A stretch of 17,427 nt of DNA, taken from NCBI RefSeq assembly GCF_003334305.1, contig NZ_QOWS01000040.1. One strand, 5' to 3'. Of the stretch, positions 13,399 through 15,842 are shown piece after piece; the stretch's first letter is position 1, and every line of letters begins with the position of its first letter. The translations under genes and the position numbers were made by a program. This DNA is from Escherichia coli (GTDB lineage: Bacteria > Pseudomonadota > Gammaproteobacteria > Enterobacterales > Enterobacteriaceae). Below the pieces are notes generated by a model. That model was not told where the DNA came from. It was given only the letters and a program-made list of their open reading frames with translations, and did no database searches.

Positions 13399-15768
13399 AT
13401 GAAATTTAACCACAATCTTTTATTTATTTCCTCACAATATCTTGATGGCGACAACCCTTCGCAGCAGGTACTGGAAGAGCTTCAAACCGAACTCGCGGAA
13501 CGCGGTTTTAAAATTCATATCACGCACCAGATCTCTGATGGATTAAAAATCATCGAAAAAAGCCCCCAATACAGCGGGATTGGTTTTTACTGGGAGCCAG
13601 ACAATCCGACCTTTGCAGAAGAGCTACAGCACTTTATCAGCATATTCCGCAAAAGAAATGCCACGACGCCGCTGATAATTTTCTCAGAACAGAATATTAC
13701 CGATCGTATCCCACTCGACGTCTTAAAAGAGGTCAGCGAATATGTTTATCTGTTCTCTGAATCCGCAGCCTTCACTGCCAATCGACTGTACTCCTTAGTC
13801 CACCGCTATGCGGATAAGCTTCTTCCTCCCTACTTTAAAACCCTTAAGGACTTTACCGAGGACGGTGACTATTACTGGGACTGCCCGGGGCATATGGGGG
13901 GAATGGCCTATCTGAAACATCCTGTTGGCATTGAGTTCATTAACTTCTTTGGCGAAAACATGATGCGCGCTGATATTGGCGTGGCTACCGCGGAGATGGG
14001 GGATTATCTGATCCACGCCGGACCGCCTAAAAAATCGGAAGAAATTGCGGCCCGACTGTTTGGCTCTGATTGGACCTTCTACGGTGTTTCCGGCTCATCG
14101 GGGTCGAACCGTATTGTGGCCCAGGCTGCGGTTGGCGCAGATGAAATTGCCATTATTGACCGAAATTGCCACAAGTCACTTAATCATGGCCTGACCTTGT
14201 CTCAGGCAAGGCCGGTTTACCTGAAACCTACCCGCAACGCGTGGGGGCTGATTGGGCCTATCCCGACCGGACGCCTGAAGAAGGCCAGTATTGATGCGCT
14301 GGTGGCAAACAGCCGACTAGCATCTGGTGCGGTCAGCCAGTCCCCGTCCTACGCCGTGGTAACCAACTGCACCTATGATGGCTTCTGTTATAACGTGAAC
14401 GATGTAGTCAGACACCTGGGTGAAAGCGCACCGCGCATCCATTTTGATGAAGCATGGTATGCCTATGCGCGTTTCCATCCGCTATACCAGAGTCGCTATG
14501 CAATGGACGCGGAGGAAACGCCAAATCGTCCAACCCTATTCGCCGTACAGTCCACCCATAAAATGCTGCCCTCACTCTCCATGGCCTCAATGATTCATGT
14601 GAAGAAAAGCGATCGCGCGCCGCTTAATTTCGATGACTTTAACGATGCCTTTATGATGCACGGCACGACCTCACCCTACTACCCGATCATTGCATCAATT
14701 GATGTGGCAGTAAGCATGATGGAGGGTGAATCCGGTTATTCGCTTGTGCAGGAGTCAATTGAAGAAGCGATTGCCTTCCGTAAAGCCGTGGTCAGCGTCA
14801 AGCGCCAGCTCCAGGAGCAGGAAGGTGGTGACGCCTGGTTCTTCGATGTGCTTCAGCCAACCGAAGTGCAGGACAGCGATTCTGGGCAGCGATACAGTTT
14901 TGAAGAGGCACCCGTATCGCTGCTGAGCCACAGCGCCGACTGCTGGTCGCTGCGCTCCGGTGAGCGCTGGCACGGTTTTGCCGATGATGATCTGGTCGAA
15001 ACCAACAGTATGCTCGATCCAGTAAAAGTGACCCTGACTTGTCCAGGGATCGGCCCGAAGGGAGAATACCAGAAAAACGGTATTCCGGGATATTTGCTGA
15101 CCCGTTTTCTCGATGACCGTCGCATTGAAATTGCCCGTACTGGTGACTACACCGTGCTGATCCTGTTCTCCGTCGGCATCACCAAAGGCAAATGGGGAAC
15201 TCTGATTGAAAGCCTGCTGGCCTTTAAAAAGCATTACGACAATGACGATCTGGCCACAGATGCTATCCCGTCGCTGAAAGCGCATTCTCCACACTACGAC
15301 ACGCTAACCCTCAAGGAGCTATGTCAGATAATGCATGAAAAAATGGATGAGCTGGAGCTGATGTCGCATATCAACGACGCGGTAAACACCGATCCGGAAC
15401 CAGTTATGACCCCGGCAGAAGCCTATCAGAAAGTCGTACGCTACAAAACCGAGCATATCCGGCTGGATGATTTTAGCGGCAGAATTGCCGCCAGCATGCT
15501 CGTCCCATATCCCCCAGGCATTCCTGTACTGATGCCGGGCGAACGGATGCCGCAAGGTAACAAGGGCATTATTGGCTATCTGCGCGCCCTGCAGGAATTC
15601 GATAAGCAATTCCCAGGTTTTGAACATGAGATCCAGGGCGTTAACGTCGATGAAAACGGGGACTTCTGGGTCAGAGCGATTGTGGAAGAAGAACGCGATG
15701 GGCAGTCGCTACCCGGCCACATAACCTTTAAACGCCAGGTCTCTGGTATTAAAAAGGGCCGCCAGTAG
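13399..15768 (+). CDS. PLP-dependent Orn/Lys/Arg decarboxylase, fold-type I, AdiA-like (789 aa), substrate unknown
   Basis: Shares blocks with E. coli AdiA and CadA: GSSGSNR, DRNCHKSL, PTRNA, VVTNCTYDG, HFDEAWYAYARF, STHKM (putative PLP lysine, codon at 14560-14562), MMHGTTSPYYPI, DVAVSMMEG, WHGF, MLDPVKVTL, FSVGITKGKWGTL, VPYPPGIPVLMPGE, FPGFEHEIQG. N-terminal wing-like domain present. GGAG RBS 8 nt upstream. About 34 aa longer than AdiA, with a C-terminal extension. Confidence 0.9.
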   Translation: MKFNHNLLFISSQYLDGDNPSQQVLEELQTELAERGFKIHITHQISDGLKIIEKSPQYSGIGFYWEPDNPTFAEELQHFISIFRKRNATTPLIIFSEQNITDRIPLDVLKEVSEYVYLFSESAAFTANRLYSLVHRYADKLLPPYFKTLKDFTEDGDYYWDCPGHMGGMAYLKHPVGIEFINFFGENMMRADIGVATAEMGDYLIHAGPPKKSEEIAARLFGSDWTFYGVSGSSGSNRIVAQAAVGADEIAIIDRNCHKSLNHGLTLSQARPVYLKPTRNAWGLIGPIPTGRLKKASIDALVANSRLASGAVSQSPSYAVVTNCTYDGFCYNVNDVVRHLGESAPRIHFDEAWYAYARFHPLYQSRYAMDAEETPNRPTLFAVQSTHKMLPSLSMASMIHVKKSDRAPLNFDDFNDAFMMHGTTSPYYPIIASIDVAVSMMEGESGYSLVQESIEEAIAFRKAVVSVKRQLQEQEGGDAWFFDVLQPTEVQDSDSGQRYSFEEAPVSLLSHSADCWSLRSGERWHGFADDDLVETNSMLDPVKVTLTCPGIGPKGEYQKNGIPGYLLTRFLDDRRIEIARTGDYTVLILFSVGITKGKWGTLIESLLAFKKHYDNDDLATDAIPSLKAHSPHYDTLTLKELCQIMHEKMDELELMSHINDAVNTDPEPVMTPAEAYQKVVRYKTEHIRLDDFSGRIAASMLVPYPPGIPVLMPGERMPQGNKGIIGYLRALQEFDKQFPGFEHEIQGVNVDENGDFWVRAIVEEERDGQSLPGHITFKRQVSGIKKGRQ

Positions 15769-15786
15769 GCGGGGGAAAGAACAATA

Positions 15787-15812
15787 CCGTCGGATCGCCT
15801 GCAATCCGACGG
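15787..15812 (+). other. Perfect 9-bp hairpin in the decarboxylase-antiporter intergenic region (possible attenuator or transcript-processing/stability element)
   Basis: CCGTCGGAT-cgcctgca-ATCCGACGG, 18 bp after the decarboxylase stop and 30 bp before the second antiporter ATG. No T-run follows, so it is not a classical full terminator. Confidence 0.4.
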
Positions 15813-15842
15813 CAATATTATAGAATAGCTGAGGGAAACGTT

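Follow-up and report, generated by a model that had tools for sequence, protein, structure and literature searches.

A basic-tailed relative of AdiA encoded in a mobile Escherichia coli decarboxylase–antiporter cassette: clade assignment and a possible link to histidine

A 17,427-nt stretch of Escherichia coli DNA on contig NZ_QOWS01000040.1 (hereafter the window) carries three genes in the order T1–decarboxylase–T2, all on the plus strand. T1 and T2 encode ArcD-like antiporters for basic amino acids and polyamines, and the gene between them encodes a 789-aa decarboxylase, the query of this study (Table 1). Its open reading frame (ORF) starts with ATG, and the protein ends in ...EEERDGQSLPGHITFKRQVSGIKKGRQ. 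A first-pass annotation had described the query as a longer AdiA with a charged C-terminal extension. We found instead that it belongs to an unnamed clade of the LAOdc family, referred to here as the basic-tail or hdc2-like clade, and is not an AdiA orthologue. Together the three genes form a mobile decarboxylation/antiport cassette that is conserved across genera.

The Pfam domains OKR_DC_1_N (E = 1e-15), OKR_DC_1 (E = 1e-144), and OKR_DC_1_C (E = 6e-46) gave the query the architecture of the LAOdc family, the wing-domain, AAT-fold Lys/Arg/Orn decarboxylases. It was aligned with AdiA (755 aa) and CadA (715 aa) of E. coli K-12, both from NC_000913.3. The alignment retained the catalytic set S385-T386-H387-K388, H258, D350, and W353, with K388, H258, D350, and W353 corresponding to LdcI K367, H245, D330, and W333. 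The annotation had named the STHK lysine and the other core motifs as conserved and the enzyme as probably active. Because these motifs are intact, the query is probably an active pyridoxal 5′-phosphate (PLP)-dependent decarboxylase. A pseudoenzyme, which the annotation would have recognized by the loss of an essential residue, was ruled out by the presence of every catalytic residue. The length excesses that it gave, 34 aa over AdiA and 74 aa over CadA, are exact. The segment preceding W524-H-G-F (residues ~488–513) was present in AdiA and faced a ~20-residue gap in CadA, as had been described. AdiA (...VMCVKA) and CadA (...KEESKK) stop opposite query residues ~760–766, leaving ~26–28 extra C-terminal residues, so the basic tail does extend beyond both enzymes. 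An AlphaFold2 (AF2) model built from an 85-sequence family alignment reached a pLDDT of 89.3 and a pTM of 0.89. Foldseek matched the model to AdiA (2vyc) with TM scores of 0.91/0.95 at 38% identity, and TM scores against AdiA, LdcI, and LdcA structures ranged from 0.85 to 0.91.

The description of the query as a longer AdiA did not hold. The best NCBIfam match was the AdiA equivalog NF011603, at 739.9 bits against a cut-off of 1167; a genuine AdiA representative (P0128), used as a positive control, scored 1278 on this model. On the LdcI/CadA model NF011929, the query scored 560 bits against a cut-off of 1056. In a distance-based neighbor-joining tree with 200 bootstraps, the query and its relatives formed a clade separate from the AdiA, LdcA-like, and CadA sequences. 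Support was 99.5% for the core clade, 98% for the clade with its sister pair, and 98.5% for an inner group of the query with Photobacterium sequences, and an exclusive grouping with AdiA appeared in 0 of 200 bootstraps. Model cut-off, phylogeny, pocket, and gene neighbors, the four AdiA features tested, all set the query apart from AdiA. The query shares with AdiA its fold, three domains, pre-WHGF insert, PLP residues, and presumed acid-stress role alongside an antiporter. It differs in sequence (38–39% identity), in its pocket acid (D161 versus AdiA E193), in its 27-aa basic tail, and in its partners, which are two ArcD-like antiporters rather than AdiC and AdiY. Its gene is accessory and bracketed by the insertion sequence IS1, while AdiA lies in the conserved adi locus. 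LdcI/CadA (3n75, 9e0o) belongs to the same fold family, and pocket positions can be transferred to the query from its ligand-bound structure. However, the query shares only 34–35% identity with it, lacks its T-S-S-E ammonium pocket, carries the AdiA-type insert, and has no cadB or cadC.

A search of 5.8 billion proteins returned many full-length homologues (787–794 aa) down to ~52% identity from E. coli, Hafnia, Proteus, Providencia, Salmonella diarizonae, Bordetella, Alcaligenes, Acinetobacter, Orbus, and many metagenome-assembled genomes (MAGs). An additional genome scan added Citrobacter, Klebsiella, Commensalibacter, Victivallis/Lentisphaeria, and Ignatzschineria and, at ~50% identity, many Acidobacteriaceae, Dyella/Lysobacter, Methanosarcina, and Methanothrix. 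The archaeal homologues (L027, L028, L030, L079, L082, and L087) imply inter-domain transfer at this level of identity; L028 reads DRICLKS instead of DRNCHKS (H258L). Among acidophilic soil Acidobacteriaceae (L029–L075), a homologue of ~50% identity is nearly universal, and no transporter was found inside 6 kb of these loci. The two sequences of the sister pair, P0122 (794 aa) and P0125 (790 aa), are the only ones that lack the PLP lysine, reading STHE and STHS, and P0125 has E at the H258 position. Both retain basic tails of 25–28 residues, and they may be noncatalytic pseudoenzymes. In the account of Carriel et al. (2018, PMC6257575), the “Adc” group is patchy and lacks a conserved gene context, with “possibly hidden paralogy”; PMC8983666 repeats this account. 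The basic-tail clade, unlike the Adc group overall, has a conserved gene context and is plausibly a good candidate for the hidden paralogue within Adc. Within this clade, apparently only the tail-less hdc2 enzymes of Photobacterium have been studied.

The gene context centers on the two antiporters. Wherever the contig of a tail-bearing member of at least 63% identity runs past the decarboxylase gene, T2 follows that gene after 12–155 bp, and tail-less Photobacterium members (62% identity) carried a histidyl-tRNA synthetase (HisRS) gene in its place. In Enterobacterales, Alcaligenaceae, and Commensalibacter, T1 lay upstream. Proteus and Alcaligenes have an AraC-type regulator ahead of the cassette, and neither such a regulator nor a remnant of one was found in the E. 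coli window. The Enterobacter copy (L009/L010) adjoins slp, yfdX, and hdeD-like acid-fitness genes. Judged from its genes, the anatomy of the cassette is that of a decarboxylation/antiport module for acid stress or energy. T1 and T2 fell below the cut-offs of four further models, scoring 442 and 450 on ArcD (cut-off 591), 438 and 415 on the type 2 histidine–histamine antiporter (histam_anti_2, NF040512; 725), 122–134 bits on TIGR04298 (his_histam_anti; 750), and 146–155 bits on AdiC (574). Named homologues gave no specificity for T2, as its best 120 matches all carry generic names. In Acinetobacter, Providencia, and Bordetella, T2 is followed by a FomA-family outer-membrane porin gene (L006 10992–12017; ~1.7 kb downstream of the decarboxylase in L032, L017, and L018), which may provide an outer-membrane route for substrate and amine.

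Within E. coli, the 6.4-kb cassette region was present at a coverage of at least 80% in 495 of 5,426 complete genomes (~9%). In the identical region of ATCC 43896 (RefSeq annotation), the cassette lies between IS1 copies, the second of which follows T2. The IS1 copies (window 10914–11630 and L001 18486–19183) form a composite-transposon-like bracket, and ~195 bp of native DNA is left between the IS1 end and T1. Promoter and terminator consensus matches occurred at or below shuffled expectation, and no Rfam leader or riboswitch match was found upstream of T1. The hairpin in the decarboxylase–T2 spacer has no plus-strand T-run and no significant Rfam match (Xoo8, E = 0.43).

Table 1. Positions of the cassette genes, decarboxylase segments, and flanking elements in the window
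Feature	Position	Strand	Basis
IS1 copy, upstream boundary of the cassette	10914..11630	-	NCBIfam transpos_IS1; insA 11300-11572, frameshifted insB 10914-11273, terminal repeat ~11616-11630
Candidate sigma-70-like promoter upstream of T1, TATACA-16-TATAAT	11681..11708	+	Best match in a consensus scan only
T1, ArcD-like basic amino-acid/polyamine antiporter, 489 aa	11825..13294	+	TIGR00905, 488 bits (cut-off 409)
Query, wing-domain PLP-dependent (AAT-fold) basic amino-acid decarboxylase of the basic-tail clade	13399..15768	+	ORF, Pfam, NCBIfam, AF2/Foldseek, phylogeny
N-terminal wing (REC-like) domain, aa 1-137	13399..13809	+	OKR_DC_1_N at aa 23-137; alignment to the AdiA wing
Y159-W160-D161-C162 codons, clade-specific part of the distal pocket	13873..13884	+	Mapped from the H. 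alvei LdcI structure
K388 codon, PLP Schiff-base lysine of STHK	14560..14562	+	Aligned with AdiA K386 and LdcI K367
Insert of ~26 aa (aa 488-513) preceding WHGF	14860..14937	+	Three-way alignment; common to AdiA, absent in CadA
Variable linker of the C-terminal extension, aa 762-784	15682..15750	+	Column entropy 2-3.6 bits; AF2 block pLDDT 80-85
Terminal K785-K786-G787-R788-Q789, conserved short linear motif	15751..15765	+	Entropy, synonymous codons
Hairpin with perfect 13-bp stem, TACCGTCGGATCG...CGATCCGACGGTA type	15785..15814	.	Terminator-like scan; 74-nt decarboxylase-T2 spacer
T2, ArcD-like antiporter, 499 aa	15843..17342	+	TIGR00905, 493 bits

The C-terminal tail was compared across the clade by counting residues and charge from the conserved W757-V-R-A-I strand. 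Nearly all members of the clade have a basic tail. It spans 27–30 residues with a net charge of about +4 in the query sub-clade, 31–58 residues (+6) in archaeal and deltaproteobacterial members, 16–22 (+5) in Dyella, and 25–28 (+5) in the sister pair. Tails of Acidobacteriaceae have a median of 40 residues (+8) and a different motif, SAPPVKR[KR]KR; those of 40–70 residues in L029–L075 carry this motif or end in ...RPVR[RH]STE. AdiA, LdcA-like, and CadA sequences continue for only 1–9 residues past the same point, with a charge of 0 to +2. In the query sub-clade, K785, K786, G787, and R788 had column entropies of 0.45, 0.71, 0.50, and 0.00 bits, versus 2–3.6 bits in the linker. A KKGR-type ending occurred in 787–794-aa homologues from dozens of genera. 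It also occurred at ~50% identity in Methanosarcina, Methanothrix, and a deltaproteobacterial MAG, where no antiporter lies within 6 kb; the methanogen tails are longer and still end in KKGR[S]. The codons of this motif vary synonymously among genera, with AAA/AAG, four GGN, and four CGN codons in use. At the sequence level, this variation demonstrates that selection acts on the peptide. Read-through or a misannotated stop codon was ruled out as the origin of the tail by the same codon variation and by the preservation of length and motif across many genera. The codon variation likewise ruled out that KKGR conservation is caused by a nucleotide element, for example a terminator or the T2 ribosome binding site; the spacer hairpin lies past the decarboxylase stop codon.

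Tail-less lineages (Photobacterium, Shewanella, and Enterobacter) are few and nested inside the clade, so their tails were lost secondarily. The Enterobacter plasmid copy (L009/L010 7001–9304) is a recent nonsense truncation, as its frame past the stop codon reads KGHKITF*NAVFSRRPKKS. No tail remnant was found in Photobacterium or Shewanella. Since tail-less members exist, the tail is not needed for catalysis. W757 is 100% conserved in the presence of the tail and is replaced by T/T/H in the old tail-loss lineages, which also show W225→K, D413→N (C in the Enterobacter copy), and Y682→G; these residues track only two or three independent loss events. Judged from its distribution, the tail is an ancestral accessory and a hallmark of the clade. 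The annotation had said that its reading would fall if the extra residues were common to a known, characterized subfamily. They are indeed subfamily-wide, but the subfamily is not a characterized one. Literature searches turned up no publication about the tail or the E. coli gene, including under accession WP_000671170.

The distal pocket provided the second distinction. In a cryogenic electron microscopy structure of H. alvei LdcI with a hydrazino-lysine analogue, the distal ammonium pocket is formed by T149, S181, S183, and E526, and H245 lies on the carboxylate (PMC12091041). These numbers are also valid in E. coli CadA. Positions were transferred by alignment rather than by coordinates, and T149/S181/S183/E526 correspond to A159/G191/E193/T571 in AdiA and C162/G194/A196/A579 in the query. 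Lysine enzymes, including LdcA-like representatives, read T-S-S-E at these sites and true AdiA reads A-G-E-T. At query positions 161/162/194/196/579, AdiA has A/S-A-G-E-T and the query D-C-G-A-A. Lysine specificity of the query was ruled out, as the S-S-E ammonium pocket is absent. No acid occupies the four pocket sites in the tail clade, and D161, which adjoins the first site and is conserved throughout, is the relocated acidic pocket residue. The signature Y159-D161-C162-G194-A196-A579 was invariant in the inspected members of at least 59% identity, including Photobacterium, L008, P0106, and P0098. The Dyella, Acidobacteria, and archaeal groups read Q/S159-D161-A162-G194-S196-A579. The annotation had proposed that the differences from AdiA and CadA might alter oligomerization, regulation, or specificity, which we consider reasonable, and we add that the distal pocket is remodeled relative to both AdiA and LdcI. 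Its example of RavA binding to LdcI found no pointer in the present results. The signature separates the clades simply and may serve as a quick specificity classifier for the whole family. Three sequences grouping near AdiA (P0124, P0126, and P0132) have the lysine-type T-S-S-E pocket, which fits LdcA-like lysine decarboxylases and the Burkholderia lysine decarboxylase that branches within Adc (PMC6257575).

The Photobacterium enzymes (P0108 and relatives) connect the clade to histidine. They are tail-less, share 62% identity with the query, group with it in the inner bootstrap group, and differ from its signature across the inspected active-site segments only by H263Q and G235A. In P. kishitanii and two P. 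phosphoreum assemblies, the homologue lies between an HdcP-type permease gene (737.9 bits on TIGR04298, cut-off 750) and a hisS paralogue (449, cut-off 287). In the 90% cluster of P0108 are many entries from P. phosphoreum, others from P. kishitanii and P. toruni, and one from P. carnosum, all annotated as arginine or Orn/Lys/Arg decarboxylase. Fuertes-Perez et al. (PMC8671102) reported P. phosphoreum genomes without hdc and cited Bjornsdottir-Butler et al. 2020 (Int J Food Microbiol 334:108815) for “a novel enzyme ... with histidine decarboxylase activity”. This matches the species found in the P0108 cluster. Secondary citations of hdc2 do not state its protein family. Gene context, species distribution, and the reported content of the 2020 abstract together led us to a strong inference that hdc2 is the LAOdc-type Photobacterium gene (P0108/P0272). 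The query and the Photobacterium enzyme have in common their clade, domain architecture, distal-pocket signature, and placement in a decarboxylase–antiporter cluster. The Photobacterium enzyme differs in having 766–771 aa, no tail, a replaced W757, and Q at position 263, and in pairing with a single HdcP-type (TIGR04298) antiporter and a HisRS paralogue rather than two ArcD-like antiporters.

The Gram-negative hdc cluster of Morganella, hdcT1-hdc-hdcT2-hisRS (PMC12072131), likewise has an antiporter–decarboxylase–antiporter order on one strand. Its decarboxylase, however, is an unrelated 378-aa group II PLP enzyme, and hisRS is absent from the window. The window contained neither an antiporter passing the histidine–histamine model nor hisS, and both elements are essentially present in Photobacterium. 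As the query shares the whole distal-pocket signature with the nested, histidine-linked Photobacterium enzymes, its substrate is probably histidine. On these sequence comparisons we favor L-histidine, with histamine as the product, at modest confidence. Arginine comes a clear second, and other basic amino acids make up the remainder.

The arginine alternative would make the query a second, horizontally acquired arginine decarboxylase in which D161 binds the guanidinium group in place of AdiA E193. The ArcD-like transporters would then exchange arginine for agmatine or ornithine, and Photobacterium would represent a later switch to histidine. AdiA is the best family and structure match of the query, and public annotation reads “arginine decarboxylase”; these annotations, however, were made by similarity only, under the curated cut-off. 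The T1/T2 family includes the arginine/ornithine antiporter ArcD, and the invariant penultimate Arg788, which is C-terminal in some members, could act as an arginine-like pseudosubstrate, a role that would suit an arginine enzyme best. Deep members of the clade (Dyella) carry an AdiC orthologue (60% identity) 31 bp downstream, which suggests that arginine may be the ancestral substrate. The pocket of this AdiC-linked group nevertheless has Q/S159, A162, and S196, versus Y159, C162, and A196 in the query sub-clade. The HisRS-linked Photobacterium enzymes carry the signature of the query, and a switch to histidine without a pocket change is unlikely. Taken together, the arginine alternative is possible and distinctly less probable than a histidine substrate.

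The explanation that we prefer joins a basic-tail clade enzyme, a mobile cassette, a histidine substrate, and a tail acting as a latch, and we give it as a whole a probability of roughly 55%. Of its parts, the clade identity, cassette conservation, pocket signature, and selection on the tail are demonstrated, the histidine substrate follows from comparison, and the latch is a hypothesis. In such a cassette, the amino acid would enter the cell, its decarboxylation would consume a proton, and the amine would leave. This cycle would buffer the cytoplasm and generate proton-motive force, which the adi, cad, and hdc systems also do. Several observations, besides the Dyella pairing, count against this explanation. 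Histidine activity has been reported only for the Photobacterium enzyme and for none of the members with a tail and ArcD-like antiporters, and the assignment of hdc2 to the LAOdc family rests on the three lines named above. The ArcD and type 2 histidine–histamine models score T1 and T2 alike, below both cut-offs, and the names of their close homologues are all generic. Neither the E. coli cassette nor any other T1/T2 locus comes with a HisRS gene, and the small residues A196 and A579 are not obviously suited to a shorter substrate. For the latch, the KKGR binding site lacks structural support and the loss-correlated residues represent two or three independent losses. The E. coli locus also lacks a regulator.

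The tail linker begins acidic (E763–E765), and AF2 predicted a beta-bridge at F777 and K778. The monomer model packs residues 761–780 onto the body (block pLDDT 80–85) and leaves residues 782–789 undefined, with pLDDT below 50. According to PMC8983666, the C-terminal domain is peripheral in the decamer and helps to form the channel by which the active site is entered. We hypothesize that the linker, being flexible, lies against the enzyme surface and holds out the basic end, KKGR in the query sub-clade, as a regulatory, charge-dependent latch. Its docking point would be an acidic site on the enzyme or oligomer, near the C-terminal-domain entry channel, and it would tune activity or assembly with pH.

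GadB offers a precedent: at neutral pH, its active site is plugged by flexible residues of the C-terminus. It resembles the query in being an acid-resistance decarboxylase with a flexible C-terminus, which makes a pH-dependent latch conceivable by analogy. GadB, however, belongs to another fold group and has another tail sequence, and contact of KKGR with the active site would be hypothetical.

Instead of docking on the enzyme, the basic tail could hold the decamer at the inner membrane, or at the antiporters on their cytoplasmic face, forming a decarboxylase–antiporter metabolon. Ten basic tails would lie at the decamer periphery, given the location of the C-terminal domain (PMC8983666), and co-transcribed antiporter genes flank the decarboxylase gene. 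LdcI also clusters at the cell periphery, according to a preprint (bioRxiv 10.1101/2025.03.27.645680). However, KKGR in Methanosarcina, Methanothrix, and the deltaproteobacterial MAG, and basic tails in Acidobacteriaceae, occur with no antiporter within 6 kb, and the tail-less Shewanella and Enterobacter copies retain T2 or T1/T2. The persistence of KKGR away from antiporters and of antiporters beside tail-less copies led us to down-weight an antiporter-docking peptide. The strict conservation of Gly and Arg exceeds the need of nonspecific lipid binding, and the tail lacks an amphipathic hydrophobic face. A metabolon is improbable, and the findings on the tail together point to a tethered peptide that would dock on the enzyme or oligomer rather than bind a transporter or lipid. 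Least probable is that C-terminal KKGRQ is a degradation signal limiting the enzyme after acid stress: the exposed, low-confidence C-terminus with a conserved dibasic motif and its natural truncation without gene loss would allow this, but the likeness to the basic C-terminal class of ClpX recognition motifs that Flynn et al. reportedly described in 2003 (e.g., MuA ...RRKKAI) is loose and differs in lysine register, other sub-clades have very different basic tails, and the motif is conserved in archaea, which are not known to have ClpXP.

A histamine product would have practical consequences. About 1 in 11 sequenced E. coli strains would carry a histamine-producing system, together with many Proteus, Providencia, Hafnia, Citrobacter, Klebsiella, and Acinetobacter strains. 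Published hdc surveys cover the pyruvoyl and group II types only (PMC8465708, PMC12484125), and screens by PCR or hidden Markov models derived from those genes would be blind to this system. If true, this would bear on scombroid food-safety testing and on gut bacterial histamine in asthma, irritable bowel syndrome, and diarrhoeagenic E. coli infection (reviewed in PMC8231116). More speculatively, the clade could constitute a third structural class of bacterial histidine decarboxylase, widespread and missed by hdc surveys, carried on a cassette mobilized by insertion sequences and gated by a previously undescribed KKGR latch that would dock electrostatically at neutral pH and let go upon acidification. 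This class would span Enterobacterales (E. coli, Proteus, Providencia, Hafnia, Citrobacter, and Klebsiella), Alcaligenaceae, Acinetobacter, and gut Lentisphaerae; we regard this extended proposal as doubtful. Whatever the substrate, the analysis separates a paralogous clade from Adc, whose patchy phylogeny and context are an acknowledged puzzle (PMC6257575, PMC8983666). The conserved tail and the twin ArcD-like antiporters are new relative to the studied members, and KKGR lends itself to testing whether a large decameric stress enzyme is regulated by a tethered peptide. The tail alone would be a modest curiosity, to which the AdiA reassignment, the pocket signature, and the possible histamine link add value.

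The rest of the window is also E. coli accessory DNA, with fecIRABCDE at 235–7780, followed by IS3/IS1 remnants, an acuI fragment, and the cassette. Between fecE and IS1 lie a fragment of an IS3-family transposase gene (8917–9516, minus strand) and an N-terminal fragment of an acuI/yhdH-type acrylyl-CoA reductase gene (9914–10291, minus strand). ATCC 43896 has a group II intron (ltrA) inserted in the same IS3, and this intron is absent from the window. The 488-aa ORF at 5546–7012 is an over-extended fecD, with the FecD match confined to the last 318 residues; fecD in RefSeq spans 957 nt and overlaps the end of fecC.

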